Positions 1 through 53,502 of a DNA stretch of 64,000 bases are shown here, piece after piece. The first letter of the stretch is position 1. Each line of letters begins with the position of its first letter. Under the pieces are notes generated by a model. The model did not search any database. It was not told the DNA's origin and was given only the letters and a program-made list of their open reading frames with translations. The position numbers were made by a program, and so were the translations under genes. Source of the DNA: Candidatus Scatosoma sp. (lineage in GTDB: Bacteria; Bacillota; Clostridia; Christensenellales; Borkfalkiaceae); contig JAZLDG010000074.1 in the NCBI GenBank assembly GCA_045614565.1, positions 38,561 through 102,560 of the forward strand, read 5' to 3'.

Positions 1-1202
1 TCTATTTCGTAAGCGGCAGGCGTTGCGGAGACGTACACCACCTGCGGTATACGCGCGTCGAACTCGGGAAACGTGAGCGGACGGTTGTCGTACGCCGCTT
101 GCATACGGAAACCGTATTCCACGAGATTTTTCTTTCGGGAAAGATCGCCGTGATACATCGCGCGGATTTGCGGCACGGTCATATGGCTTTCGTCGATAAA
201 CACTAAAAATTCCCCCGACGGAAAATAATCGAGCAAGGTAAACGACGGCTCGCCGGGCTTTCGCCCGTCGAAATAACGGCTGTAATTTTCAATCCCGCTG
301 CAATACCCGATTTCCCGCATCATCTCCAAATCATGCTCGGTGCGTTGCTTCAAGCGTTGCGCTTCCAAAAGCTTGCCCGCGTCTTCAAACGCTTTCACTT
401 CTCCGCGCAAGTCTTCTTCAATCATCGCCAAAGCACTCCGCAGCTTTTCCGTGCCGACTGCGTATTGACTTGCGGGGAATATCGCGACGTGCGAAAGCTC
501 GTTGAGTTTGTTCCCCGTCAACGCTTCCACTTCGTAAATTTTATCAATCTCGTCGCCGAAAAACTCGACGCGTATCGCAACTTCCGAGTTAGACGCAGGG
601 AAAATCTCCAAGCTGTCGCCGCGTACGCGGAAGGTCGAACGCTTAAAATCGACGTCGTTGCGCGAATATTGCAATTCGATGAGCTTTCTAATCAGCTCGT
701 TGCGTTCGTATTCCATATTTGGGCGTAGAGATAAAGACAACCGAAAATACTCTTCGGGCGCGCCCAAGCCGTAAATACACGACACCGACGCCACCACGAT
801 TACGTCGCTTCGCTCCATCAACGAGCAGGTTGCGCTGTTGCGGAGCTTGTCGATTTCGTCGTTCATACTCAAATCTTTCTCGATATAGGTATCGGTGGTG
901 GGAATATAGCTTTCGGGCTGATAATAATCGTAGTAAGACACGAAATATTCCACGCGGTTTTCGGGGAAAAATTCCCGAAACTCGTTGCAAAGCTGCGCCG
1001 CAAGCGTCTTATTGTGCGCGATTACGAGCGTAGGTCTATTCACGTTTTTGATGACGTTTGCCATCGTAAACGTCTTACCGCTACCCGTAACCCCTACGAG
1101 TACCTGCGCACGCATACCGTCAAGCACGCCTTCGGTTAATTTTTCTATCGCCTGCGGTTGATCTCCCGTGGGAGCGTACGGCGAATGCAGCTTAAATTCC
1201 AT
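1..1202 (-). CDS. uvrB: excinuclease ABC subunit B, N-terminal ~400 codons (rest of gene lies beyond window start)
   Basis: Absent from the ORF track because it runs off the window. My translation from the ATG at 1202 gives [51 protein letters not shown]..., a UvrB N-terminus with Walker A GSGKT. Confidence 0.9.
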
Positions 1203-9591: not shown

Positions 9592-10629
<1,038 letters not shown>

Positions 10630-40012: not shown

Positions 40013-40795
40013 TCAACTCTCGTATTCGTATAATTTATACAACTTTTTAGACGTTTTTCCCGCGTATACGGACTTAAAAACGAACTTTTCAAAACCTTGT
40101 AACTCATCAATGAGAAACGCGGGCGTGATTTCGTGTTCTTGCACGAAACGCAAATTCGTATTTTCTTCCAAAACGCTTGAATTTTCCACGCCGAAAACTT
40201 GGGAAACGCCTACGTCGTTTATGGGATTTTTAATCTTCGACATCTTCGCCGCAAAGGGTGTATAACAATCCACCAACACGGATAAATGCGAAAACCGTAT
40301 AGTAAGATTGTGCAGCGTTTGCCGTAATTCGGCGTTCGTCAAATACATACTCACACCTTCTAAAATCACGATGGCGCGTTCTACTTGGGGTAAAAGCTCG
40401 ATAAGCGCAGGCTCTTTGATATCCGCGGCAAGCAAACGGTAACGCTCCGTTTCCGTGTAATACCGCTTGCGCTCGGCAATGACGGCAGGAAAATCTACGT
40501 CAAACCATTGTAAAGCTCCATCCACTCTTTGCGCGCGGCTGTCCAAGCCGCAACCCAAATGCAATACAACGGCGTCAGGATATTCGGTTATTTTTGCTTT
40601 GACCCAGTTATCAAAAACCGCGGAACGCATACCCATATAATAGGCAAGCCACTTGGATTTGGATTTACCCTTCAAGGGGAATCGTTCTTTTTCCCAAATT
40701 TCTTCCGCTTTTTCGTCGCGAAGAATGATCCCCTTTTTGCTGACTAACGCTTTCCCGTAAAGCGGGATATATAAAGTTTTATTGACGTTATTCAT
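40013..40795 (-). CDS. class I SAM-dependent methyltransferase (LCMT/TcmP-like)
   Basis: The SAM motif VVLHLGCGLDSRAQRV. Confidence 0.65.
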   Translation of the reverse strand: MNNVNKTLYIPLYGKALVSKKGIILRDEKAEEIWEKERFPLKGKSKSKWLAYYMGMRSAVFDNWVKAKITEYPDAVVLHLGCGLDSRAQRVDGALQWFDVDFPAVIAERKRYYTETERYRLLAADIKEPALIELLPQVERAIVILEGVSMYLTNAELRQTLHNLTIRFSHLSVLVDCYTPFAAKMSKIKNPINDVGVSQVFGVENSSVLEENTNLRFVQEHEITPAFLIDELQGFEKFVFKSVYAGKTSKKLYKLYEYES

Positions 40796-40859
40796 TTTCT
40801 TTATTTCTATATTGATTTTTATTTTACAAAATTCCTATGTTGGGAGCGTTTTTCCTTTT

Positions 40860-41390
40860 TCATTGCAAGATTTTTACAAGTTCTTTTAGATTTTTTCGTT
40901 TCTTTGTGCGGAGCTTATCTTCGTCCTTGGCGTAACCCAAAATAATCACGAGCCGAACGGTGCCGTCAAGAGCGCAAATACTTCGTATTTCTTCGTCGTT
41001 GAGCCAGCCGAGAATACACGTTCCAAGTCCTTGCGCCGTCGCTTCCGCCGTGATATACGCCGTAACGATACCGATATCGATCGAACGGTAATCGTTCTTT
41101 TTTACCTTTGCGCCCACCCCCGCCGTTAGCGCGTACGGCTTTTCCAAAATAACCAACGCCACAGGCGCATCGGTGGCAAATTTGTTCATTCCCATTCCTT
41201 GCGTAGCTTTTTCCACCCTTTTTGCGATTTCCCCGTAACAAACGGTAATTTGATAGGGTTGACCGTTACAAGCGGACGGAGCAAGCCGCGCCGCTTCTAA
41301 AATGCAATCAATTTTGTCCTGTTCCACTGCGCGGTCGGGGTTATAACTACGGCAAGATTGCCTTGTTTTTGCTATTTCACTAAAATCCAT
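40860..41390 (-). CDS. nitroreductase-family protein
   Basis: RQSCRSY...ILEAARLAPSACNGQP, typical of the nitroreductase fold. Confidence 0.8.
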   Translation of the reverse strand: MDFSEIAKTRQSCRSYNPDRAVEQDKIDCILEAARLAPSACNGQPYQITVCYGEIAKRVEKATQGMGMNKFATDAPVALVILEKPYALTAGVGAKVKKNDYRSIDIGIVTAYITAEATAQGLGTCILGWLNDEEIRSICALDGTVRLVIILGYAKDEDKLRTKKRKNLKELVKILQ

Positions 41391-41411
41391 CTTTTTCCCT
41401 TTTTGCTTAAT

Positions 41412-41455
41412 TGGTACTCCCGACGAGAATCGAACTCATAATTGTCCCTTAGGAG
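41412..41455 (-). pseudogene. orphaned 3' portion (44 nt, anticodon loop to CCA) of the host tRNA-Arg(CCU); attL-side junction
   Basis: Minus strand reads CTCCTAAGGGACAATTATGAGTTCGATTCTCGTCGGGAGTACCA. Its stems pair with the orphan 5' half at 48721..48758. Confidence 0.85.
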
Positions 41456-41682
41456 CACATCCAAACTGTTGATATAATTCTAAATTCTATGGATTAACCG
41501 TAATTTTATATATTTTATGGATATTTTTCTTTCAATAAAATGGATGTTGTAATAAATTATGGACGTTTCAAAACAACTTTTATTCTAAAATTATTCCTAT
41601 TTTATTCCAATTCACTTTTCCCTCCTCTAAAAAGTTATTAAAATCATTTTCAAAATTAAAAATCTAAATATTGGATTTTTGG

Positions 41683-41711
41683 TTGAATTTTTTAGATGGA
41701 TATGCTATAAT
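41683..41711 (+). promoter_or_regulatory. sigma-70-type promoter of the island cargo operon
   Basis: TTGAAT (41683..41688), a 17-nt spacer, then TATAAT (41706..41711), about 40 nt before the XRE gene. Confidence 0.6.
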
Positions 41712-41749
41712 AGTAAAAACTGATTTTTTATTAAGGATGGTGCTATAAA

Positions 41750-41956
41750 ATGGCTGTCAGTTATAAAAAGCTATGGAAACTTTTAATTGATAAGGATATG
41801 AAGAAAAAAGACCTTCGTATTGCTACGGGTATGACTACTACTGCGCTTGCAAAACTCGGTAAAAACGAACACGTAAACACCGAAATTTTGGCTAAAATCT
41901 GCAAAGTTTTAGATTGCAATATAGAAGATATTGTGGAAGTTGTAGATGAAAAGTAA
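41750..41956 (+). CDS. XRE/Cro-family helix-turn-helix transcriptional regulator (68 aa)
   Basis: KKDLRIATGMTTTALAKLGKNEHVNTEILAKICKVLDCNIEDIV is the classic short HTH (YozG/HTH_26-like) pattern. Confidence 0.85.
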   Translation: MAVSYKKLWKLLIDKDMKKKDLRIATGMTTTALAKLGKNEHVNTEILAKICKVLDCNIEDIVEVVDEK

Positions 41957-42023
41957 AAACTTTTATAAATATGACAAGCGTTGTCGTATTTAGCGTAATA
42001 AAATTAATTTTATAGGTGAAATA

Positions 42024-42677
42024 ATGGCAGAAATGGTCTCTTGGATGAATGATAACAATGGCTTTATAATGGGGCTTTTAACTTTGGTATATGTTATAGC
42101 TACTATTTGTATCTGTGTTTTTAATTATAAATCAGCGACTGCGGCACGTAAACAAACTGAAACCCAAATAAATCAATTTAATGCAACGAATCGCCCTAAT
42201 ATTATTCCTTGTTTTACAATGATAGAAGGTGCAATGTTTTGTTTAACCTTCAAAAATATAGGAAACGAATGTGCAAAGAATCTAAAAATAACGATTAATA
42301 AGGAATGGTTTAATTGCTTTGATGAAGCGTTAAAACAAAAACAAATGCCCGGCAATATGAAAGAGTCCTTGCAAAACGAATTTTTTCTTCCCCCTAACGA
42401 TGATATTAAATTTGTTCTTATGATTCCAGGGGATGGTACAACAATGTATCAAGAACTTAGTAAAGAAAAAATAAAAATTCATTTATCATATAATCGAAAC
42501 AATTCCCAAGAATCTTTTAATGATGATTTTGAGTTGGATTTATTGGCAATGGCAGGATTGATACTTGATAAATCAGACTTTATTAGAAAAATGGAAAAAC
42601 AAGAAAAGGCATTAAAAGACATATCGAAAAATATTAAAAGCGTAGAAAAAGCAATTGCAAAGGAGAAAAACTTATGA
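42024..42677 (+). CDS. single-pass membrane protein of unknown function (217 aa)
   Basis: N-terminal TM helix FIMGLLTLVYVIATICICVF followed by a ~180-aa soluble domain. RBS AGGTGA. The stop overlaps the next start (ATGA at 42674..42677). Confidence 0.7.
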   Translation: MAEMVSWMNDNNGFIMGLLTLVYVIATICICVFNYKSATAARKQTETQINQFNATNRPNIIPCFTMIEGAMFCLTFKNIGNECAKNLKITINKEWFNCFDEALKQKQMPGNMKESLQNEFFLPPNDDIKFVLMIPGDGTTMYQELSKEKIKIHLSYNRNNSQESFNDDFELDLLAMAGLILDKSDFIRKMEKQEKALKDISKNIKSVEKAIAKEKNL

Positions 42678-44767
42678 AAGTAGAAAAATATAGAGTTCTT
42701 GGAGAGTTAATTGAGACGAATAAACGTCAATTTGTTATCCCTGTCTATCAAAGAAACTATGATTGGGGAAAACAACACTGCAAAAAACTTTATGACGATA
42801 TTATTTCTGCATATGAGTTAGATAGATTTCACTTTATCGGTTCAATCGTTTATGTCGACCAAGGTGAAGAAAATAAAATATATAGATATTTAATAATTGA
42901 CGGACAGCAAAGAATCACAACACTTTTTTTATTGCTCAAAGCTCTTCTTGATTCAACCGAAGACGAAAACCTTAAAAAAGAGTTTGAAGATATTCTTTTT
43001 AATATCGACAAATATAATGACTTAAAACTAACAGACCAAACAAAAATAAAGTTAAAGCCAATCAAAAGCGATAATGACCAATTTATGCTTTTGATGAAAA
43101 ATGATTTGCAAGCGATTGATAGAAGTTCAAACATTTTTATTAACTATGACTATATGAAAAAGTTGATTTCAAAATCAAACGCATTAGGTATAACAACTAA
43201 AGATATTTTGTCAGGTATCAAGAAATTAACTTCAGCAGTCATTATACTTGACCCAAAAGAAGATGAACCACAAGTGGTTTTTGAGTCTATCAACTCAACA
43301 GGGTTAGACCTTTCTCTTGCAGATTTAATTAGAAACTTTATTCTAATGACTGATAAAAATCAAGAAAAACTTTTTGAAGACTATTGGATTAAAATCGAAA
43401 ATAATGTTGGGCAAAATAAAATGCCCGCCTTTATTACGGATTTCTTGCAGTTTTCTTGTCGTGAGATTGTTTCCACTAAAAATGCTTATATTGTCTTTAA
43501 AAACTATTTTAAGACAGAGAATTTCTCTAATGAACAAATGTTAGAAAAGTTATTGCATTATTCTGCTTTCTACAAGGCATTTTTAGGCAATGATACACAA
43601 ACATATTCTCACATCGTAAACAAAAAATTGGCAGGATTTAATGCATTAGACCAAGGGACTATATATCAATTTTTATTCCACATTTTCGACGATTACGATG
43701 CAGGCATTATTTCAATTGAAGATTTAGAAAAGATTGTTACGTTCTTCTTTAATTATTTACTCCGTAGAATTGTTTGTGGGGTTGGCTCTAATAGTTTAAG
43801 AGGACTATATAAAACTCTATACAATAGAATTTTTGCCGATAAAAAGAATTTGGAAAATTACTACGACTCTATTATTCAATTCTTCTTACAGTTGAATACA
43901 AAGGATGCAGTTCCTTCTGATTCAGCGTTTAAGGATGCCTTAATAAACACTGATATTTATAACAAGAAAAACGTTTGTAAATATCTCTTAAAATCAATAG
44001 AAGATATTGCAGAAGATGGAAGTGAAAGCAAAGAGATATTAGACGTTTCCACTCTTTCTATTGAACATATAATGCCGCAAAAACTTTCAGATTATTGGCA
44101 AACAGCGCTCGGCAATAATTATGCCAAAATACACGAAAAATACTTACATAATCTCGGTAACTTAACGTTAACGGGTTATAATAGTGAATTAGGACAAAAA
44201 ACTTTTGACGAAAAGAAGCAATTAATCATAGATAAAAACTCTCATATTGTTGCTCTTAACAAAGATGTTTTATCTCAAACTTCTTGGGGCGAAAAAGAAA
44301 TTAAAAATCGTGCAGACCGCTTAAGTGCTATTTTATTAAAGTTATTCTATATTGATAAGCCGCAAAAATATATTCAATTTCAAAATGATACGGAAAGGCG
44401 TTATTCGGTTGGAGAAAACTTCGATGCTACGGGAACTAAGCCAAACACTTGCATTTTCTTTGGCAATACCTTAACGGTTAGTTCTTATGCAGACTTATTA
44501 TCAAAAGTTATGGAAGTGTTCTATGATTTAGATAACGATGTAATAAATGAATTAGCGAATAAAAATTACAAGTTAGCAAGCGCATCAAGAACATATATTA
44601 CCCACGATGCTGAAAAATTAAGAAAAGCTGTTGAAATTTACGAAACAGGCATATTTTTTGAATCAAATTTAAGTGCAAATAACATTATTTCTTTCTTAAA
44701 GAGTCTTTTAGATGTGTTTGAGCTTGATTATACCGAACTTGTAATTTGTGTAGATTCTAAACAATAA
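42674..44767 (+). CDS. DUF262/DUF1524 (GmrSD-like) nuclease-family protein with extra C-terminal region (697 aa)
   Basis: N-terminal DUF262 motifs FVIPVYQRNYDWGK and IIDGQQRITTLFLLL. The C-terminal His-Me/DUF1524-like motifs are LSIEHIMPQ and HNLGNLTLTGYNSELGQKTF. About 170 further residues of unknown type follow. Confidence 0.85.
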   Translation: MKVEKYRVLGELIETNKRQFVIPVYQRNYDWGKQHCKKLYDDIISAYELDRFHFIGSIVYVDQGEENKIYRYLIIDGQQRITTLFLLLKALLDSTEDENLKKEFEDILFNIDKYNDLKLTDQTKIKLKPIKSDNDQFMLLMKNDLQAIDRSSNIFINYDYMKKLISKSNALGITTKDILSGIKKLTSAVIILDPKEDEPQVVFESINSTGLDLSLADLIRNFILMTDKNQEKLFEDYWIKIENNVGQNKMPAFITDFLQFSCREIVSTKNAYIVFKNYFKTENFSNEQMLEKLLHYSAFYKAFLGNDTQTYSHIVNKKLAGFNALDQGTIYQFLFHIFDDYDAGIISIEDLEKIVTFFFNYLLRRIVCGVGSNSLRGLYKTLYNRIFADKKNLENYYDSIIQFFLQLNTKDAVPSDSAFKDALINTDIYNKKNVCKYLLKSIEDIAEDGSESKEILDVSTLSIEHIMPQKLSDYWQTALGNNYAKIHEKYLHNLGNLTLTGYNSELGQKTFDEKKQLIIDKNSHIVALNKDVLSQTSWGEKEIKNRADRLSAILLKLFYIDKPQKYIQFQNDTERRYSVGENFDATGTKPNTCIFFGNTLTVSSYADLLSKVMEVFYDLDNDVINELANKNYKLASASRTYITHDAEKLRKAVEIYETGIFFESNLSANNIISFLKSLLDVFELDYTELVICVDSKQ

Positions 44768-44783
44768 AACAAAGGAGAAAATT

Positions 44784-45008
44784 ATGTTTGACCCAAATTG
44801 GTATTATAACCCTAACTGTTTTAATCCACAAGCTTACGCTCAAATGCAAGCGCAACAACAATATGAGCAAGAACAGCAGAAAGATGTATATAACGCAATA
44901 AAAGCCTATAGCGATTTTCTAGATGCAATGGAAAAGTTAGACCCTGCGCATAAGCAAGATGTATTTCGCGGTTGTTTTGTTGAGATTGCTAAACGTATGC
45001 ATTGGTAA
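44784..45008 (+). CDS. small Q/N-rich hypothetical protein (74 aa)
   Basis: RBS AAAGGAG 7 nt upstream. The sequence is MFDPNWYYNPNCFNPQAYAQMQAQQQYEQEQQK... No family recognised. Confidence 0.6.
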   Translation: MFDPNWYYNPNCFNPQAYAQMQAQQQYEQEQQKDVYNAIKAYSDFLDAMEKLDPAHKQDVFRGCFVEIAKRMHW

Positions 45009-45051
45009 TTTTACACACAAAAAAATTGGTAAATAATATAGGAGAAAAGAA

Positions 45052-45747
45052 ATGCCCTTTAGTGAAAAAACAAAAGAAGACGCAATGATAGCGTGTGGGA
45101 GACACTGCTGCATCTGTCATAAGTTTTGTGGCAATAAAATGGAAGTCCATCATATAACTCCACAAAAAGATGGTGGTGAAGACACATTTGAAAACGCTAT
45201 TCCCCTTTGCTTTGATTGCCACGCCGAAGTGGGTGCGTATAATACAAGTCACCCTAAGGGTGTTAAGTTCTCTAAAACTGAATTAAAGCGCCATCGCGAT
45301 AATTGGTATAAATGTGTTAAGCAAGGTAATATAACAAGCGATACAATTCCACCGATGAAATTATTGCGTGAAGAAGGATTTAAAGAAACCCCACTCGTTC
45401 GCATAACATCAGGAATACAACTATTAAATGCGTTGAGTGGTTGTTGTGGAGCTCAATATAATTACGAAGAACCCAAAACGAGAGAAGAAGCATCAATTAT
45501 AAGCGAATTTCAAAAAGAAATGGAATATTTATCGGATGCGGATTCTCTTATCGAAGAAAGCGAAAGAGTTCTAATAGGGTTTGACTTAAATGACTTAATA
45601 ACTAAAATGGATGAGAAAGGTTTTTGGATTTTTATAGGAAGAGAAAATCGCGTCTTAACGGGTGGCGTAATCAAAGAGCCTGAAAGTTTTCCGATATTAC
45701 ATATTTACATTCTAAAAAAAGACAATATAACAATTAAAAATTGTTAA
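45052..45747 (+). CDS. HNH nuclease-domain protein with uncharacterised ~140-aa C-terminal domain
   Basis: CGRHCCICH...MEVHHITPQKDGGEDTFENAIPLCFDCHAEV follows the CxxC...HH...N...CxxCH HNH zinc-finger pattern. RBS AGGAG. Confidence 0.8.
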   Translation: MPFSEKTKEDAMIACGRHCCICHKFCGNKMEVHHITPQKDGGEDTFENAIPLCFDCHAEVGAYNTSHPKGVKFSKTELKRHRDNWYKCVKQGNITSDTIPPMKLLREEGFKETPLVRITSGIQLLNALSGCCGAQYNYEEPKTREEASIISEFQKEMEYLSDADSLIEESERVLIGFDLNDLITKMDEKGFWIFIGRENRVLTGGVIKEPESFPILHIYILKKDNITIKNC

Positions 45748-45830
45748 AATCTTTACAAAAGTAGGCAGATTCCCAAGAACGTGGGCGTTTGCCTATTAAA
45801 TTTTCACAACTCAATATATCTACCCTATTT

Positions 45831-45863
45831 AGGCGAGTGGAATTTGTTCTACTTGCCTTTTTT
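45831..45863 (+). terminator. intrinsic terminator closing the cargo operon
   Basis: AGGCGAGTGG-aatttgtt-CTACTTGCCT, a 10-bp stem with two G-U pairs, followed by TTTTT. Confidence 0.65.
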
Positions 45864-46365
45864 ATGTCCTAAAATTGCTTTCGTGGTTGTTTTTTTAAAA
45901 ATTTTTCAGCATTATAAAGTAGATGGGGTTGCAAAATGCAAAAAAAGTCAGGGATATATAATAGGAGGGTTATTTTCGCTTAAAAAATTCAGCAATATAA
46001 AGTGAGTGGTTGTTTTTTAAGAAAAAAGTAAGGAATATATAGTGTAAGGACAAACAAAAATATAACCGCTTGGTGCGGTGCGGAAATCAAAAAATTGTAA
46101 GCAGGATAAGAAAACCGCACCAAGTTGCAAATTTTCCTATTTTACCAAGCAGGTAAAGGAAAATGCAACAGGTCGCAGTTTCGACTTTTCAAACAATCGG
46201 GAAACCCGATTTTTGCTCTACTCCCCACCACCCAAACATTAACCACAAGGAGGAAAAATTTTATGAAAAATATTTTAGATTTTTATTAAAAACAGCTTGA
46301 CTTTGTTTGTTGAATATGATATTCGTATTAATACGACAATGCACTACGGTTAAGGAGATTTCAAA

Positions 46366-46686
46366 ATGAAAGAATTAACGTTAGAAGAAGTAATGGAATA
46401 TCAGCGAACACACCCACCCGTTAAGCACGTTTACGGCAGATGGGGAAACTTAAAAAAGCAATACTTAATAGACACGGGCAAAGATTGGCTGATTGCAGAT
46501 TTACCCACCTATCTTCACGGTATTGATAAAGCTGCCGAACAAATTTGGGAAGTTATGAGAGAAAAACTCTTAAAGCGCCCCGAATATAAAAAGACGGGCG
46601 AATTTATGCACGACGTTAAAATTGAAACGGAAATCAAAAACCGTATTGACGAAGAAATCTTAACCGAACTTATTTACGTGGATTAA
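46366..46686 (+). CDS. TnpV-like transposon-associated protein (106 aa)
   Basis: MKELT..., a central basic region and the C-terminal EEILTELIYV resemble clostridial TnpV proteins as I remember them. RBS AAGGAG. Confidence 0.55.
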   Translation: MKELTLEEVMEYQRTHPPVKHVYGRWGNLKKQYLIDTGKDWLIADLPTYLHGIDKAAEQIWEVMREKLLKRPEYKKTGEFMHDVKIETEIKNRIDEEILTELIYVD

Positions 46687-46699
46687 AGGAGAAAACACT

Positions 46700-46930
46700 A
46701 TGAATAGAAAAGAAGATACACCTATTAGAATTAGTCGTAGAACATACGAAGAAAAACACAAAGTAGAACGCAAAAAACTCAATAAGGTTTGGGGAACGAG
46801 CATCCCCCGTAAAGATGCTGAAAAAATTGATGCTTTCTTATCAAGCAAAGGATTATCAAAGGTAGATTTGATAATGGCAGGCTATGCAACGTTGATTGAG
46901 CAATTTGAAAGCAAGAAAAGTAATGATTAA
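46700..46930 (+). CDS. small basic protein (76 aa), possible recombination-directionality or DNA-binding factor
   Basis: Lys/Arg-rich N-terminus. The gene sits between the TnpV-like gene and the integrase with gaps of 11-13 nt. RBS AAAGGAG. Confidence 0.5.
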   Translation: MNRKEDTPIRISRRTYEEKHKVERKKLNKVWGTSIPRKDAEKIDAFLSSKGLSKVDLIMAGYATLIEQFESKKSND

Positions 46931-46941
46931 GGAGGAATTAT

Positions 46942-48360
46942 ATGGCTTATTTCAAAATAAGCACGGATAAAAAAGGAAAATTAAAAGCAAAAATACAAGC
47001 GCTTGGCAGAGACCCCGAGACGGACAAGCAAAAGGTTTGTTATAAATTGGTTAAAAACGATAACGACCTTACCCCGGCCAAGTTTCATAAGTACGTAGAA
47101 AAATGCGCTATTGAGTTCGAAGAAGAACTTGCAAAGGCTTATGAACTCAAAACCGACGTTAAAAAGTTGAAAGTTTTGACTTTTGACGAACTTGCAGCCG
47201 AGTGGCTTGAAAGTGTTAAAAAGAATTGGTCTATCAACTACTATTTAAGGGGAATTGGTATCACCAAAAAGTTTAGCGATTACTTGAAGAACAATAGACT
47301 TGCAGATAAACCCGTGAGTGAAATTACGGTTAGGCACGTTCAAATGTTTTTGAATAGTTTTGAGCAGAAAAACGGCAAACAAGACAACACTGTTTGCCTT
47401 AAAAAATACTTTCCAAACTCAATCAGTTTTAGAGCACTTGCAAGGGATAACGTTATAAATCGTTGTTCGTCATACGGACTTAAGAAAAAAGGCAATTACA
47501 TACTTCGTGAAACGGCAGAGAAAATTTGCGAAATTCACAACCTTGATTTCGACGAATATTTTAAGCCTAACGAAAGAAACAAAGCCTATTCAGCCGAAAC
47601 CATTAAAGGTTATAGAAGATTGCTTAGAACAGTATTTAACGAAGCCGTAAGATACGATTGGATAACGAAAAATCCCGTATGCGCTACAAAGGTTGGCTCA
47701 GGCAATAGCAACTCATCGCTTCGCCCCGTCAACGAAAAGGAAGTTTACTCAATAGCCGAAGCGCAAGAATTTATGAAAGCGCTTGACGAACTTCCCGAAG
47801 ATTTGATTTATAAGCGTGTACCGATAAAGTTTATGCTTCTTACGGGTGTGCGTGCAGGTGAACTTAACGGACTACGTTGGTCGGATATTGATTTTGACAA
47901 GCAAGTGGTTCATATTCGCAGAAATCGGCTTGTGGCGAAAGGTTACGGAATCTATGAGAAAGAACCCAAGACAAAGACTTCCACTCGAGATATACCCCTT
48001 CCAACGCCTTTAATTGACGATTTGAAGGAATATCGTGAGTGGTTTAGAGTAATCGACGACGAGTTTGATAATAATGTGGACGAATACTATTTTGCCGTCA
48101 ATATCTGCCGTGAACCCGTCTATCCACATACGGTTGGTGGTTGGCTTAAAAAGTTTCAAGACGACAAAGGTTTCAAGCGAGTTTGTTGTCACGGACTACG
48201 CCATACCTATTGCAGTTTGCTATTATCGCAAAACGTTCCCTTACAAACGGTTAGTAAATATATGGGACATAGCGACTCAACCATTACTTTGCAGGTTTAC
48301 AGTCACTTTATACCCGACACACAAGAAAAGGCGTTAAATGCACTAAATAACCTATTTTAG
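46942..48360 (+). CDS. int: tyrosine-type site-specific integrase
   Basis: N-terminal SAM-like/core-binding region plus a catalytic domain with LTGVRAGEL (Arg), HGLRHTYCS (H-x-x-R) and GHSDSTITLQVYSH (His...Tyr). Confidence 0.9.
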   Translation: MAYFKISTDKKGKLKAKIQALGRDPETDKQKVCYKLVKNDNDLTPAKFHKYVEKCAIEFEEELAKAYELKTDVKKLKVLTFDELAAEWLESVKKNWSINYYLRGIGITKKFSDYLKNNRLADKPVSEITVRHVQMFLNSFEQKNGKQDNTVCLKKYFPNSISFRALARDNVINRCSSYGLKKKGNYILRETAEKICEIHNLDFDEYFKPNERNKAYSAETIKGYRRLLRTVFNEAVRYDWITKNPVCATKVGSGNSNSSLRPVNEKEVYSIAEAQEFMKALDELPEDLIYKRVPIKFMLLTGVRAGELNGLRWSDIDFDKQVVHIRRNRLVAKGYGIYEKEPKTKTSTRDIPLPTPLIDDLKEYREWFRVIDDEFDNNVDEYYFAVNICREPVYPHTVGGWLKKFQDDKGFKRVCCHGLRHTYCSLLLSQNVPLQTVSKYMGHSDSTITLQVYSHFIPDTQEKALNALNNLF

Positions 48361-48372
48361 GAATAAAAAATT

Positions 48373-48409
48373 GGGATACCCACTTGATTGTGGGTATCCC
48401 TTAATTTTT
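48373..48409 (+). terminator. intrinsic terminator after the integrase
   Basis: GGGATACCCA-cttgattg-TGGGTATCCC followed by TTAATTTTT. Confidence 0.7.
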
Positions 48410-48507
48410 GTCTATGGGTGGATATAGTGGAATAGTTCAAAATTATTCCAAAAATGCCCGTTTTTTGCCCTAAAAATAGTAAAAAACCACAAAAAATGTG
48501 GTTTTTT

Positions 48508-48582
48508 TGGTAGTCCCTGCGGGAATCGAACCCACAACTAGCCCTTAGGAGGGGCTTGTTATATCCATTTAACTAAGGAACC
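48508..48582 (-). tRNA. island-borne complete tRNA-Arg (anticodon CCU), CCA-encoded
   Basis: Minus strand reads GGTTCCTTAGTTAAATGGATATAACAAGCCCCTCCTAAGGGCTAGTTGTGGGTTCGATTCCCGCAGGGACTACCA. It folds as a 75-nt cloverleaf with anticodon loop CTCCTAA. A hairpin with a T-run (48482..48507) follows it. Confidence 0.88.
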
Positions 48583-48720
48583 AAAATGGATAAAATTTAT
48601 TTTATTTTTATTCCTAAAATTATTCCTAAAACTTTTTAAGTCTTAAAAAGTGGCTATTTTCACTCGTTTTTACCATAAAAAGCATTGATTTTAGATATAT
48701 TAGACGGATAGACCAAGCGT

Positions 48721-48758
48721 TTAGGAGGGGACTGTTATATCCATTTAACTACGGAAGC
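48721..48758 (-). pseudogene. orphaned 5' portion (38 nt) of the host tRNA-Arg(CCU); attR-side junction
   Basis: Minus strand reads GCTTCCGTAGTTAAATGGATATAACAGTCCCCTCCTAA. Its acceptor and anticodon stems are complementary to the 3' fragment at 41412..41455. Confidence 0.85.
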
Positions 48759-48777
48759 ATACTATATAATTTTAATT

Positions 48778-48806
48778 ATTATACCGAAAATTACGTTTTT
48801 TTGCAA
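48778..48806 (-). promoter_or_regulatory. host tRNA promoter left upstream of the truncated tRNA
   Basis: Minus strand reads TTGCAA (48801..48806), a 17-nt spacer, then TATAAT (48778..48783), about 20 nt before the tRNA 5' end. Confidence 0.6.
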
Positions 48807-48894
48807 TGATTTTTATGGGAAAAGTTGAAATTTTGTAGTACGCTATTCCTTACGCGCTTGGTGGAAAACCGCCAAGCGCGTAAATTGAAATTGA

Positions 48895-51800
48895 TTATTC
48901 GCCGTCTTTTTTCAACGAAAGCATTTCGCCGTTCACTTCTATTTCGTCTTTTATCAGTCTTAACGCCGTTTCCATACGCTCCGTTAAGGCTTCCCCTGCG
49001 CGGGCAAAGCCAAGCTGCGAAGCAAGCAAACGGAACAAACCCGCTTTTTCCACCGTTACGTTTCTACGCAACAGCTCTTTAATCCCTGCAATCAGCTCCT
49101 GCAATTCAATATACTTGATATCCCGCGGCTCGTCGCCGTCCTTGGGCACGCGAAGCATCGGAACGGGTTTATTAATCAAATACAAAAATCCGTTCAAACG
49201 CACAATCCCCCAACGCTCGCAACCCTGCATGAGTTTGTTGAACTCGTCGTGCACGACGCCCGTCACCTTTTCCCGACCGCCAAACGCGAACACGATCCGT
49301 TTCAACAGCCATTCTTCGGAAACGGGAGCTTCCTTTTCCACGATCGCTCTCGTCATCTTCACGACGTCTTTTTTATACATTATACCAAGTCTGTTCTCGT
49401 CCAGCTTCTCATACTTGGGGAACTCGAAATGCTTTTCCTTGACCGCTTGTTCAAACGTCGTTTCCTTTTGCCCTTTGCTTTCCTTTTTCGGGGGATGCGC
49501 AATCGCGTACTTGACCGCCGTCAGCAAGCGTTCCTTTTCTACCCGTTTATTCGCAAACCAGTCGGTAGACCAAATACGGTAATACCGCCAGCCCATACGC
49601 TCCATAACTTCCTGCTGCAAGCGATCGCGATCTCTCGTCGTATGGGCGTCGCGATACGCCGCGCCGTCGCACTCGATCGCGAGCGCATATTCTTCCGTAT
49701 TCGGACGTTTGACCGCCAAATCGACCTTAAAGGACGAGCTTCCCAGCCGTTTTTCGACTTCAAAGCCTTCCGCCGTCAAAAAGTCGCAAATCTCCGCTTC
49801 CAAATCGGAATCGTGCGTAGCAAAAAGCTGCGTTTGCGACGTGGCGCGCGTAAGCGCGATATCGCCGTTTTCAGCGTAATCCAAATAATCCCGCAACAAT
49901 CTTGCTCCCACCGAGTTGGTACGCGAAATATCGATATCTCCGTAGTGCATAGACGAAACGAGCTGTACGTTATATTTCGCGCGCGTAACGGCAACGTTCA
50001 GGCGCCGTTCGCCGCCAGCACGGTTGACAGGGCCGAAATTGAGCAACAATTTCCCCTGCGCATCCTTGGCGTAAGCCACGCTGAAAATGATCACGTCGCG
50101 TTCGTCACCTTGTACCGTTTCCAAATTCTTGACGAAAAACGGCTCGCTGCGGTCGGATTTGAAAAACCAGTCCTTGGACGGGTCTTTTTTTCTGCGTTTG
50201 GTAATCAGTTTATCGATCAAGGTTTGTTGCGAAATACTAAACGCGACCACGCCGATACTTCTATCGGGATATTTTTCAATATTTTCAAACACGAGCTCGA
50301 CGACGCGTTCCGCTTCCAAGCGATTGGTTTTGCTCGTTCTGTCAAACACGCCGTCCACGTAAAAGTAATCGACGCCCAAGCCCTTTTTATCCTTTTGCGC
50401 CGAAGGGAAGGTCACAAGCTCTCCGTCGTAAAAATTCTCGTTAGAGAAGGAAATCAAGCGTTCAAAACGGCTTCTGTAATGCCATTTGAGCCGTCTTTGC
50501 GGGAAGGTCGTGGAGCAAAGATCCAAAATGGACTCGAAATCAGTAATATCTTCTTCTTCGCTATCGTCGAAATCGGCGGTGGAATTAAAGAAATTGCTCG
50601 GCGGCATTTGCTTGGAGTCGCCCACGACGATGAGCTGTTTTCCGCGATAAATCGCGCCGACCGCGTCCTGCGGGAAAATTTGCGAAGCTTCGTCGAATAC
50701 GACCACGTCAAATTGTATATCGGGGCTTAAAAAGGTACTTACGCTCAACGGCGACATCAAAAAGCAGGGTTTGAGCGTTTGTGCCAGCTCACCGATTTCC
50801 GACAGTAGCTGCCGTATGCCCTTTTGTTTGCGTTTTTTCTCGCCTTCGCGGAGCAAAATCGCAATACTGCTTCCTTGCGCGATCATATCCAAGGACGGTC
50901 TTTGCGCAGACAGCGTCGCTTTGATTTTCGCTTTATTGATATCGAAATGTAAATTGTCTTTTTCCTTGAACCGTTTTACCGTTTCGTCGTGCGGTATTCT
51001 TGCAAATTCCGCAAGCGCAGGCGTTTGGCCGAGTACCAAATCCGCCCATTGCGAATAGTAGGTTTTTTGGAACGTATCGCAAACGGCGGGGGCAGGTATG
51101 CGTTTATCAATGGTTTTATTGACGAACGTAAACAGCGACAAGGCTTTCAATTCGTCCAAAAGCTTCATAAACGAGCACCAGTGTCCAAGCTCGTCTACGC
51201 GGTCTAAACAGTCGCGGTATTTTTGCGTCAACGCGTCCAAAGGCGCGCGTTGCGTGTCGTACGCGTTCAAATCAAAGCGTTCTTTCAAACCTTTTTCCGC
51301 TTCGCCGTCCTTGGCAAACGCTTTTTCGTACGCGTCGAAAAATCTTGCAAACGAGCCGCGTTCGCTTTCAAATTCGCTCGGCGTATATTTTTGCAAACGC
51401 GCAAAGTCTACGTTTTCGGAATGAATTTCCGCCAACCGCGTCAATTCGTCGATCGCGCGCTTAAAATCCGTGTTGACCCCTGCGTAGTCCTTGCCCAACG
51501 CGTCCTTTACGCGATTTTCCAATTCGTCAAATTCGCGGAGCGTAGTTTGATACACGCAAAGATCGTCCATCGACGACACCGCTTTCTTATACGGGAGCTT
51601 TTTGCCGTTTCCCGTGCAGAAACGGATATCCTGCGCGATTGCTTTGTATTCCTTGGAAAACAAACGGGTGAAAAATCCGTCGTATTGCCGCGTTAATTTT
51701 TTATACAGTTCTTGTCCGTTGAGCTTATACACGTCTTGATCAAAGCGCATATCTAGCGCCTTTTTCTTTTGCAAAACGGTTTCGGCGAGCGTTTTCATCT

Positions 51801-53502
51801 TCCCACAAAGCTCTAATACGCGCGTATTTTCGCTTGATTTTAACAGCGTAGGCGTGATAAAACGCGCGTCTTTTAACAAGGCAAAGCATTTTTCAAGCGT
51901 TCGCGCGCCGTTTACGCCGTCTACGCACACGCCGTATTTGTCCTTGACGCTGTCGCGTAAAATCACGAGCGTATCGCAAAGGCTGATTGCGCCTTGAAAC
52001 TCCGCTTTGAGCTTGGTTACGGACGGATAGGAATAATCCCCGTCAACGTAACCGTACCAAACGTTCTTACGGTAGTCGTAGCCCACGGACTCGGTATATT
52101 CCGCGTATCGCGTCAACGCCGTTTCCGCTTTTTCGCCGTATTCTTCGCCCTTGCTAGGCAAATCCGAAATCACGAAATCCATCGTAGGCGCGTTTCGCCG
52201 CGCCGCGATTTCTTCAAATAAGCGGTACGCCGATTTATTGATAATCGGGCGGGGCGCGTGCAATTCTTTGGCGTATTCGTCCAAGCGTTCTTGCGCTTCT
52301 TTTTTCAGCCGAATTTCCCGATCCGCTTTATCCGAAACGCCGCTTTTTTGCAACTTCAAGGTATGGCAAAGCTCTTCGATAACCTGCTTTTTATTGGCTT
52401 TATGGCTGTGCAATTCCAAACAAAATTCTTCCAAGCCAACTTTTTTTAATTTATCGTATACGACGCTCAACGCCGCGAGTTTTTCAGAAACGAACAATAC
52501 CTTTTTTCCGTCGCCCATACATTCGGCGATGATATTCGTGATCGTTTGACTCTTGCCCGTTCCCGGAGGCCCTTGCAAGACGAAGCTTTCGCCTGCTTTG
52601 GCAAGCGCAATCGCTTCCCCTTGGCTGGAATCGGCGTCTACGACGTTACGCAAAGACAAAAGGTCGGGGGCAGGTATGCGTTCATTGTCCGTTTGTTCCA
52701 CCTTTTCGCCAAGCAAAGCGCGAATACAAGCGTTTTGCGCGATCTTGGGCGCGTTATCCTTTAAGTCCTTGTACATATTGATTTTCAAAAAAGAAAACGT
52801 ACCGATTTTACATTCCGTCGTCACCGTCCACTTCAACCGCGAAACGACGTCTTGTATCCGCAAGAAATACCCTTCGATCCCTTCGTCTTCGTCGTATTCG
52901 GGAAGCTTCACGCCGAACTCGTTTTGGAGCTTAAAGGAAAAAGTCGGATTGACGATCACTTCGTCGTCCGTTACGCGTACGTAGCAAGGCTCGACGGGAG
53001 ATTCGTTTTCAATGCAAACAGGAGCGAGCAAAATGGGCGCGCGCATACTCGTGGGCGCGTTTTCGTTTTCCCGCCAGTGAATAAAACCGAATGCAAGATA
53101 GGCGATATTGACGCCCGTTTCTTCCATTGCACTACGCGCTTTTTTACCGATGTTTTTCAGGGCTTGAATGGGTTTATTTTCGCTGTTATATACGAGAATT
53201 TGACGGTTTTTCACCTTTTTACGATAGGCGAGCAAATATTCGCCCTTGGTGATTTTTTGTTCTACACTTTCCCCGTCCCAAAGCGTGGTGGGAAGCGTAT
53301 AATCTTCGTCGTCTTCTTGCTTGGGATCGTATACTTCAAAGACGGCGGAATGTTCCGCGCGAGAAAATACCGTCGCAAAATCGGGATAGACGATTTCCGC
53401 CGTTCCCGTTTTCGTGTCCTTGAAATTGATCAAATTATTCCCCTTGCCCGTATCCAGCAATAAATCCGCCCATACGTGCAGTTTCTCCGTTCCCTTACTC
53501 AT
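48895..53502 (-). CDS. 1535-aa DUF4011-like / Upf1-like SF1 helicase / Vsr-DUF559-like endonuclease / DUF3320-like protein (Hhe-like)
   Basis: Helicase motifs: Walker A LQGPPGTGKSQT, motif II VVVFDEASQI, then LIVVGDSKQMPP, VQGDERDVIIFS and RLNVAVTRAK. The endonuclease-fold segment is FKVDLAV...ALAIECDGAAYRD...RDRLQQEVMERMGWRYYRIWSTDW. The long N- and C-terminal extensions fit DUF4011 and DUF3320 by layout. Confidence 0.8.
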   Translation of the reverse strand: MSKGTEKLHVWADLLLDTGKGNNLINFKDTKTGTAEIVYPDFATVFSRAEHSAVFEVYDPKQEDDEDYTLPTTLWDGESVEQKITKGEYLLAYRKKVKNRQILVYNSENKPIQALKNIGKKARSAMEETGVNIAYLAFGFIHWRENENAPTSMRAPILLAPVCIENESPVEPCYVRVTDDEVIVNPTFSFKLQNEFGVKLPEYDEDEGIEGYFLRIQDVVSRLKWTVTTECKIGTFSFLKINMYKDLKDNAPKIAQNACIRALLGEKVEQTDNERIPAPDLLSLRNVVDADSSQGEAIALAKAGESFVLQGPPGTGKSQTITNIIAECMGDGKKVLFVSEKLAALSVVYDKLKKVGLEEFCLELHSHKANKKQVIEELCHTLKLQKSGVSDKADREIRLKKEAQERLDEYAKELHAPRPIINKSAYRLFEEIAARRNAPTMDFVISDLPSKGEEYGEKAETALTRYAEYTESVGYDYRKNVWYGYVDGDYSYPSVTKLKAEFQGAISLCDTLVILRDSVKDKYGVCVDGVNGARTLEKCFALLKDARFITPTLLKSSENTRVLELCGKMKTLAETVLQKKKALDMRFDQDVYKLNGQELYKKLTRQYDGFFTRLFSKEYKAIAQDIRFCTGNGKKLPYKKAVSSMDDLCVYQTTLREFDELENRVKDALGKDYAGVNTDFKRAIDELTRLAEIHSENVDFARLQKYTPSEFESERGSFARFFDAYEKAFAKDGEAEKGLKERFDLNAYDTQRAPLDALTQKYRDCLDRVDELGHWCSFMKLLDELKALSLFTFVNKTIDKRIPAPAVCDTFQKTYYSQWADLVLGQTPALAEFARIPHDETVKRFKEKDNLHFDINKAKIKATLSAQRPSLDMIAQGSSIAILLREGEKKRKQKGIRQLLSEIGELAQTLKPCFLMSPLSVSTFLSPDIQFDVVVFDEASQIFPQDAVGAIYRGKQLIVVGDSKQMPPSNFFNSTADFDDSEEEDITDFESILDLCSTTFPQRRLKWHYRSRFERLISFSNENFYDGELVTFPSAQKDKKGLGVDYFYVDGVFDRTSKTNRLEAERVVELVFENIEKYPDRSIGVVAFSISQQTLIDKLITKRRKKDPSKDWFFKSDRSEPFFVKNLETVQGDERDVIIFSVAYAKDAQGKLLLNFGPVNRAGGERRLNVAVTRAKYNVQLVSSMHYGDIDISRTNSVGARLLRDYLDYAENGDIALTRATSQTQLFATHDSDLEAEICDFLTAEGFEVEKRLGSSSFKVDLAVKRPNTEEYALAIECDGAAYRDAHTTRDRDRLQQEVMERMGWRYYRIWSTDWFANKRVEKERLLTAVKYAIAHPPKKESKGQKETTFEQAVKEKHFEFPKYEKLDENRLGIMYKKDVVKMTRAIVEKEAPVSEEWLLKRIVFAFGGREKVTGVVHDEFNKLMQGCERWGIVRLNGFLYLINKPVPMLRVPKDGDEPRDIKYIELQELIAGIKELLRRNVTVEKAGLFRLLASQLGFARAGEALTERMETALRLIKDEIEVNGEMLSLKKDGE

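Follow-up and report, generated by a model that had tools for sequence, protein, structure and literature searches.

An integrative island of gut Clostridia that splits a tRNA-Arg(CCU) gene in its anticodon loop and carries a complete tRNA-Arg(CCU) gene

In tRNA-dependent lysogeny, described for the actinobacteriophages Fionnbharth, LeBron, Gaia, BrutonGaster and others, a tyrosine integrase uses an attB site within a host tRNA gene, the core measures 8-17 bp, and no tRNA gene is rebuilt; a cognate tRNA encoded by the phage was shown by experiment to be required for viable lysogens (Guerrero-Bustamante and Hatfull 2024; PMC10865867). The targets are tRNA-Lys, tRNA-Ile2 and tRNA-Leu, all of them essential single-copy genes, and the prevalence of the strategy outside actinobacteriophages is unknown according to its authors (PMC10865867). 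Here we report a 7.3-kb segment (41456..48720 plus one copy of the core CTCCTAA) in a stretch of 64,000 nucleotides of Candidatus Scatosoma sp. (contig JAZLDG010000074.1; hereafter the window), which is very probably an island that has split and replaced a tRNA-Arg(CCU) gene and that belongs to a large family in gut Clostridia, mostly Christensenellales.

A similar substitution of tRNAs has been noted for phage-related sequences in Sinorhizobium (PMC11476347), and prophage Lj965 of Lactobacillus johnsonii encodes a cognate tRNA and has no tRNA rebuilt at its junction, according to the passage of PMC10865867 that cites it. Lj965 is a prophage and a single case, whereas the island family is non-phage and comprises many loci. 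In classical islands of the Islander type (PMC4383910), the gene is restored at the junction by a 3' part that the element carries. The island reported here would keep to the rule that elements targeting tRNA genes preserve their function, and would do so by a route that is known for some phages (PMC10865867).

The island resembles the actinobacteriophages in four sequence-level features of tRNA-dependent lysogeny, namely a tyrosine integrase, an attB in a host tRNA gene, a short core and a tRNA with the anticodon of the target, as well as in its dead junctions and in the putative arm-type sites that flank its attP core; it is not a temperate phage. Unlike the actinobacteriophages, it has no phage genes and resides in gut Clostridia, its core is exactly the 7-nt anticodon loop, its tRNA lies directly beyond the P' arm, co-oriented with and downstream of the predicted resident promoter, and its family shows serial nesting into the replacement tRNA. 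While the requirement for the tRNA is experimental in actinobacteriophages, for the island we infer it from sequence. With classical tRNA islands it shares a tyrosine integrase at the end next to a tRNA gene, a displaced tRNA fragment at the other end (the 3' half at 41412..41455) and the occurrence of tandem arrays at one tRNA locus. It departs from them in an identity of only 7 nt (10 nt in a relative, L116), in a dead junction, and in an orphan 5' half that is present besides the 3' half; the island sequence after the core at attR, acgcttggtctatccg, is not that of a tRNA and restores no gene. A single recombination of the attP core with the loop of the island's own tRNA would turn the present layout into a classical one. 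The anticodon loop is reportedly a recognised sublocation for crossover, a classification said to go back to Williams in 2002.

The split gene and its empty site

The two ends of the island carry the two parts of one tRNA gene. On the minus strand, positions 48758..48721 read GCTTCCGTAGTTAAATGGATATAACAGTCCCCTCCTAA, the first 38 nt of the tRNA, ending with CTCCTAA, and positions 41455..41412 read CTCCTAAGGGACAATTATGAGTTCGATTCTCGTCGGGAGTACCA, which starts with CTCCTAA and runs to CCA. This 7-nt sequence is the only one common to both junctions, and positions and sequences agree with an earlier, first-pass annotation of the window. Joined via the 7-mer, the halves give the 75-nt tRNA proposed there, which is identified by ARAGORN as tRNA-Arg(cct), with 7/7 pairs in the acceptor stem and 5/5 pairs in the anticodon stem. 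Neither ARAGORN nor an Rfam scan called a tRNA at either junction alone, as expected from the annotation, which had found no intact copy at the junctions; the function, however, would be supplied from 138 nt away (see below). Using hidden Markov models (HMMs) of the two halves, with which loci were scanned for orphan 5' and 3' halves, we obtained a score of about 37 bits for each half, and the 5'-half HMM had no match in a control of 470 kb upstream of related integrases. The 7-mer itself occurs four times in the window (3.7 expected) and is not above chance, so the significance of the junctions rests on the tRNA halves. The G+C content is 0.43-0.53 in the flanks, drops to 0.27-0.38 over most of the island, as had been supposed from its AT-rich appearance, and amounts to 0.42-0.43 at the 3' end of the integrase gene. 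The proposed split of the gene is confirmed: a site-specific integrative island lies between the halves of tRNA-Arg(CCU), and the crossover falls in the 7-nt anticodon loop.

The empty site of the island is found in L089 and L090, two of the 116 loci that were fetched (labelled L001-L116; W denotes the window). Their nitroreductase gene, the neighbour of the 3' half, encodes a protein 98% identical to that of the window, and the nucleotide match extends over 853 nt (window 41455..40603; 98.1% identity). Directly upstream of this gene lies an intact tRNA (273..347) whose sequence is exactly that of the joined halves and which scores 59.1 bits on the Rfam tRNA model, well above the gathering score of 29 bits, so that the joined halves pass the covariance-model check suggested in the first-pass annotation. 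These island-free relatives carry an intact gene and not two separated fragments. In L090, 61 nt of the window's 5' flank (48781..48721) are matched as well. The annotation had placed the predicted empty site between the nitroreductase and a giant helicase gene; this is confirmed next to the nitroreductase and over 61 nt at the opposite end, which is short of the helicase gene. Upstream, L089 (1-272), L090 (1-249) and the window (48782-48895) are unrelated, although they are 98% alike from the tRNA onwards. The upstream part of L090 is an AT-rich stretch with a small open reading frame (ORF) on the minus strand, whose product, judged by eye, resembles a heavy-metal-binding (CopZ-like) domain.

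Two loci with a 99% identical nitroreductase (L084 and L085), which stem from other samples and independent assemblies, are occupied and have the same left junction. In L086 (nitroreductase 81% identical) an intact tRNA lies beside the nitroreductase gene, and in L086-L088 (80-81% identical) synteny is lost on the 5' side. L086 also contains, upstream of the intact gene (9751-9879), a truncated copy of tRNA-Arg(CCU) comprising its first 56 nt; the next 73 nt contain part of the tRNA's T-arm/acceptor region in inverted orientation (cgacgagaatcg). The arrangement may be the scar of earlier events at the site. An exact look-up did not find the window's nitroreductase protein on record; close relatives are on record. 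A metagenome scan yielded an identical intact tRNA in three human-gut contigs (L081-L083), which have other neighbours and were ruled out as the empty site of this locus because of their unrelated context. In L081-L083, L086, L089 and L090, the intact gene begins with a 5' half that is 100% identical to the orphan one of the window.

The island-borne tRNA and the attachment site

The only tRNA that ARAGORN identified in the whole window is a complete tRNA-Arg(cct) inside the island (Table 1). The view of the first-pass annotation that the host gene was simply destroyed must be revised, since the island carries this gene in the same orientation as the split gene, to which it is 80% identical. 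The orphan 5' half lies 138 nt upstream of it, and a terminator-like hairpin follows it directly. A promoter-like site, 19 nt ahead of the orphan half, faces through this half and the P' arm into the island tRNA, and the terminator scan predicted no terminator between them; a weak internal promoter-like site is present at 48646..48619. The same pattern is seen in the family, where terminator-like sites occur in 7/42 of the spacers between orphan half and tRNA and in 30/40 of the 3' flanks of the tRNA (within 60 nt). The layout suggests that the island tRNA is probably transcribed by read-through from the resident promoter, and its anticodon and position point to functional compensation for the split gene. 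An Rfam scan of the island at a permissive threshold found nothing credible besides the tRNA (trpB-motif match at 45758..45868, E=0.96).

Genes split near the anticodon loop are also known from Nanoarchaeum equitans, where the two halves of a tRNA gene lie apart in the genome, are both expressed, and are joined via complementary leaders by the archaeal splicing machinery. To our knowledge, bacteria lack the archaeal tRNA-splicing enzyme. Inspection by eye of the sequences after the 5' half (acgcttggtc...) and before the 3' half (...tttggatgtg) found no complementarity of the kind seen in the Nanoarchaeum leaders, and unlike N. equitans, the island contains a full replacement tRNA gene.

The attachment site is organised around the core. 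The 14-mer AGGAATAATTTTAG is present in exactly two copies in the 64 kb (41585..41598 and 48614..48627), one in each arm and in the same orientation. In 42 unique spacers of the family, the core is followed by a TATCC(A/G) motif about 10 nt on, then by paired short direct repeats, and then by the tRNA; the paired repeats vary with the integrase subfamily (GGAATAA, GGTATAA, GGTGAAA, GGTTGTA and others). This arrangement suggests that the 14-mers and the repeats of the P' arm are arm-type sites to which the integrase would bind. The predicted attP reads ...CAACAGTTTGGATGTG-CTCCTAA-ACGCTTGGTCTATCCG....

Independent insertions and nesting in the island family

A total of 427 proteins of about 472 aa are homologous to the integrase. 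In species-representative genomes, a scan yielded 151 related stretches, and the 80 loci that were returned belong nearly all to Christensenellales or other gut Clostridia. The survey was based on the 58 integrase loci with at least 1.5 kb of sequence 3' of the integrase gene. A tRNA-Arg(cct) is located downstream of the integrase on the opposite strand in 42 of them, and 39 of these 42 have at least one orphan 5' half beyond the tRNA (two or three in 10 loci). Almost all orphan 5' halves (53/56; 48 unique junctions) end exactly in CTCCTAA, after which a mean of only 2.7 of 5 stem pairs can form, compared with 5.0 in intact genes.

In five loci (W, L001, L005, L006 and L008) the integrases are 96-97% identical and the island tRNAs are 100% identical, whereas the split tRNAs differ in acceptor and anticodon stems, and that of L005 is of a 77-nt type. 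All five break after CTCCTAA and continue with acgcttggtctatccg, and loci with integrases of this similarity and identical island tRNAs occur in several different genera. L005 contains a 9,965-bp island whose halves join to a perfect 77-nt tRNA. In the more distant L116 (MT835493.1, 10883-46420; integrase 55% identical), the halves are 35.5 kb apart and join to a perfect 75-nt tRNA, with an identity of 10 nt. This entry is listed in GenBank as 'UNVERIFIED: Bacteriophage sp.' and is a bacterial scaffold; its cargo is Dnd-like (PAPS-reductase-like, SbcC-like, helicase and DNA polymerase genes), and the 10 largest ORFs, which were tested, gave no matches to phage structural proteins.

If the integration were of the classical kind, the intact tRNA would represent the host gene after regeneration, and the orphan 5' half would be an unrelated leftover. 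Classical islands usually show an integrase beside an intact tRNA gene and a displaced 3' fragment at their other end (PMC4383910). The intact tRNA, however, is identical over its full length in five loci whose flanking halves differ; its 5' strand pairs with its own 3' strand, while the partner of the orphan 5' half is the distant 3' half (7/7 pairs). Moreover, the empty site consists of exactly this orphan 5' half and this distant 3' half, and 138 nt of island-specific P' arm separate the orphan from the intact gene. We therefore consider classical regeneration to be very improbable.

The carried tRNA follows the target even when the anticodon changes. In L069 (12388-12733; integrase 52% identical), a tRNA-Arg(UCU) gene inside a tRNA-Gly/tRNA-Arg operon is split at CTTCTAA and the island carries a tRNA-Arg(tct), with the TATCCAC motif and the GGTATAAA repeats kept. 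Target and carried tRNA are both of the UCU type here; this locus is the best sequence-level argument that the carried tRNA has a replacement role.

Island tRNAs themselves serve as targets, as shown by two loci. The tRNA strand of L041 reads a P' arm and a tRNA 5' half of one type, then a P' arm and 5' half of the window type, and finally a third P' arm with an intact tRNA; in L005, the split tRNA is identical to the tRNA of another island subfamily, an integrase of which is present on the same contig. The stacks of orphan 5' halves result from this use of island tRNAs as later targets, and the halves may record the order in which islands arrived. Further arrangements were observed among the relatives. 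The contig of L005 and L028 (JAZSOI010000012.1) has two integrases of the family about 16 kb apart, and between them two orphan 3' halves 1.1 kb from each other, one with a degenerate core (ATCCTAA); a single orphan 5' half was found. L068 (4960-5034) has a 52% identical integrase and, at +162, a tRNA-Glu(ctc) that lacks an orphan 5' half upstream; this could be a classical arrangement or a host gene. In a subfamily with about 60% identity to the window's integrase (L017-L020), orphan 3' halves lie downstream of the integrase and on its own (plus) strand (+707 to +2771), with no intact tRNA within reach, and the orientation appears reversed relative to the tRNA.

Several points weigh against an island that splits and replaces its target. 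Most loci stem from metagenome-assembled genomes, in which binning or assembly errors are possible. The empty site is supported beyond 61 nt on the nitroreductase side only, and further than about 60 nt upstream of the tRNA no two of L089, L090 and the window agree. Nor is the layout universal in the family: 16 of the 58 related loci have no tRNA within 10 kb, and L112-L114 (integrase 77% identical) have none after the integrase. The predicted circular (attP) junction ATGTGCTCCTAAACGCTTGG... was found neither in viral contigs nor in the 116 fetched loci, so that mobility at present is putative. AGG codons are rare, at 0.7 per 1000 in the host flank and 2.1 per 1000 in the island. The host may be able to do without tRNA-Arg(CCU), whose codon a tRNA-Arg(UCU) could cover. 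That the island tRNA is made, charged and needed is a supposition from its sequence and setting.

The predominance of metagenome-assembled genomes among the relatives and the missing attP junction, together with the lack of an excisionase with a recognised domain beside the window integrase, would also fit an artefact of assembly or binning, or a decayed and immobile remnant. We regard this as extremely improbable. It is contradicted by the same left junction in two independent assemblies (L084 and L085), by 48 unique junctions at the same nucleotide, by an integrase of full length with putative catalytic residues that are invariant in the alignment, by the occurrence of 96-97% identical integrases and identical island tRNAs in several genera, and by the finding of presence and absence among close relatives.

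Alternatively, the island tRNA might mainly serve another purpose, such as a landing pad, protection from anticodon nucleases of host or phage, or the supply of a rare tRNA. With AGG being rare in host and island, the loss of tRNA-Arg(CCU) may be tolerable; island tRNAs are demonstrably targeted by later islands; and protection against tRNA-degrading host defences has been raised as a possible selective force (PMC10865867). We nevertheless consider such a main purpose unlikely, because the anticodons of carried tRNA and split gene always agree, even in L069 with its switch to UCU, and because the tRNA is oriented and placed such that the resident promoter would read it, with a terminator following. 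A role in codon supply was discarded, as there are only 4 AGG codons in the island. Other purposes and compensation are not mutually exclusive.

We thus prefer an island that splits and replaces its target, which would operate as follows. The 472-aa integrase would recombine the anticodon loop of tRNA-Arg(CCU) with the island site, in which CTCCTAA lies between the P and P' arms; the resident gene would be left as a 5' half at attR and a 3' half at attL. With only the 7-nt loop common to both sites, the gene would be cut and no junction could rebuild it. The island tRNA would take over the function, and the resident tRNA promoter would probably drive it. As the host tRNA would have to match only in the loop, one island type could enter dissimilar tRNA-Arg(CCU) genes, as suggested by the quite different sequences of the genes it occupies. 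The incoming tRNA would present a fresh target, into which later islands insert while orphan 5' halves pile up. Excision and a means of transfer from cell to cell are presumed in this scheme.

Gene content and implications for the island family

The features of the island and its junctions are listed in Table 1.

Table 1. Features of the island and its junctions in the window
Feature	Position	Strand	Evidence
Displaced 3' half of resident tRNA-Arg(CCU), anticodon loop to CCA; attL	41412..41455	-	Sequence; HMM 37 bits; continuous with 5' half in L089/L090
Core CTCCTAA at attL, anticodon loop and crossover region	41449..41455	-	Sole shared junction sequence; same breakpoint in five different host tRNAs
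P arm, non-coding, with putative arm-type repeat AGGAATAATTTTAG at 41585..41598	41456..41749	-	Exact 14-mer at two sites only; direct repeat D19
Cro/C1-type helix-turn-helix (HTH) regulator, 68 aa, conserved left-end module	41750..41956	+	Pfam HTH_26 E=6e-19; 92% nucleotide identity in L004, L005, L028
217-aa protein, no Pfam or PADLOC match; weak PHROG 9607 match	42024..42677	+	ORF list
Predicted GmrSD-family type IV restriction endonuclease, 697 aa, cargo	42674..44767	+	Pfam GmrSD_N E=2e-34, GmrSD_C E=3e-25; PADLOC Orf5/HEC-06 E=2e-126
74-aa ORF, only weak PADLOC matches	44784..45008	+	ORF list
HNH endonuclease, 231 aa, cargo	45052..45747	+	Pfam HNH E=4e-10; PHROG HNH families
TnpV-like protein, 106 aa, start of conserved integration module	46366..46686	+	Pfam TnpV E=2e-7; kept beside integrase in L112-L114
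Conserved small basic protein, 76 aa	46700..46930	+	44% identical to 73-aa ORF at same place in L112; no Pfam family
Tyrosine integrase, 472 aa	46942..48360	+	Pfam Phage_integrase E=6e-23 and SAM-like domains
Hairpin fitting terminator pattern on both strands, just past integrase gene	48373..48400	both	Terminator scan
Intrinsic terminator-like hairpin and T run, immediately 3' of island tRNA	48481..48507	-	Terminator scan
Island-borne complete tRNA-Arg(CCU) gene, probable replacement copy	48508..48582	-	ARAGORN; Rfam tRNA 60.7 bits; 100% identical in W, L001, L005, L006, L008
P' arm, 138 nt, with CTATCCG at 48711..48705 and putative paired arm repeats AGGAATAA at 48627..48608	48583..48720	-	Layout common to 42 unique spacers
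Orphan 5' half of resident tRNA-Arg(CCU), ending in core CTCCTAA (48721..48727); attR	48721..48758	-	Sequence; HMM 37 bits
Promoter-like site of resident tRNA gene, TTGCAA-17-TATAAT	48778..48806	-	Promoter scan, 10/12 matches

All protein-coding ORFs of the island are on the plus strand. The first-pass annotation had described the interior as entirely plus-strand, which is correct for the proteins but not for the intact tRNA-Arg(CCU), which is on the minus strand. The ends are conserved across relatives, with the HTH module on the left and the region from the TnpV-like gene through the tRNA on the right, while the cargo in the middle varies. In the window, the large cargo protein combines an N-terminal DUF262 and a C-terminal DUF1524 domain in one chain, both above the Pfam cut-offs, and its domain composition is that of a GmrSD type IV restriction enzyme. 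The end of the 217-aa ORF overlaps the start of this gene by 4 nt, so that its product is probably an operon partner. Between the HNH and TnpV-like genes (45868-46043), in a poorly coding stretch where the conserved right-hand module begins, a 38-nt repeat with GTGGTTGTTTT occurs in three imperfect copies.

The TnpV-like, small-protein and tyrosine integrase genes at the right-hand end are as annotated in the first pass (Pfam TnpV and Phage_integrase). R304, H417, R420, H443 and Y453 of the integrase are invariant in an alignment of 18 sequences and are read as putative catalytic residues. The neighbourhood of the window's integrase contains no excisionase with a recognised domain; the TnpV-like protein is a candidate excision factor. 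In L112-L114, the closest relatives that are not identical, the TnpV-like gene, a 73-aa ORF and the integrase gene occur together; L112 and L114 have an HTH_17 excisionase-like ORF, and L112 has a RhuM-family gene directly after the integrase.

The island is not a phage, judging from its gene content. Pfam and PHROGs gave no capsid, tail, terminase or lysis matches among its ORFs, and no replication initiator or primase, packaging-redirection or relaxase families, as already suspected for the replication, relaxase and capsid genes; several small ORFs have no family. A phage satellite (PICI- or P4-like) or an integrative mobilisable element is likewise unlikely, as none of the island ORFs matched such families, but the small ORFs without a family may still include one. 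A search of IMG/VR with the integrase alignment returned only distant integrases (about 24% identical), and the best integrase matches in a plasmid collection were 23-30% identical.

On the side of the orphan 5' half, the landing site adjoins a gene for a 1535-aa protein (48895-53502, minus strand) with DUF4011, AAA_11/AAA_12 helicase, MTES_1575 restriction-endonuclease-like and DUF3320 domains, located in DNA of host-like G+C content. From its domains, this neighbour looks like a helicase-nuclease of the defence type.

Taken as a family, these elements seem, on balance and with considerable reservation, to be non-viral defence islands that cut the anticodon loop and bring their own tRNA. Such a strategy would free them from any match to the host tRNA beyond seven bases, make use of the resident promoter and renew the landing site, so that one locus could become an open-ended stack of islands.

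The logic of tRNA-replacing integration, described before only for some phages, is now found in another phylum and in non-phage elements, at the scale of 427 integrase homologues and of 151 related stretches in species-representative genomes. Tools that identify islands by a regenerated tRNA and a 3' fragment will probably misplace the ends of such islands, and annotation will probably mistake the island tRNA for a host gene. An integrase that apparently needs only a 7-nt loop and comes with its own compensating gene could aid the engineering of poorly tractable gut Clostridia. The findings also show how a single tRNA locus can accumulate defence cargo, and they offer an explanation for the entry of one island type into hosts with differing tRNA sequences: if true, freedom from a host-tRNA match beyond seven functionally fixed bases would explain the spread of the family across genera.

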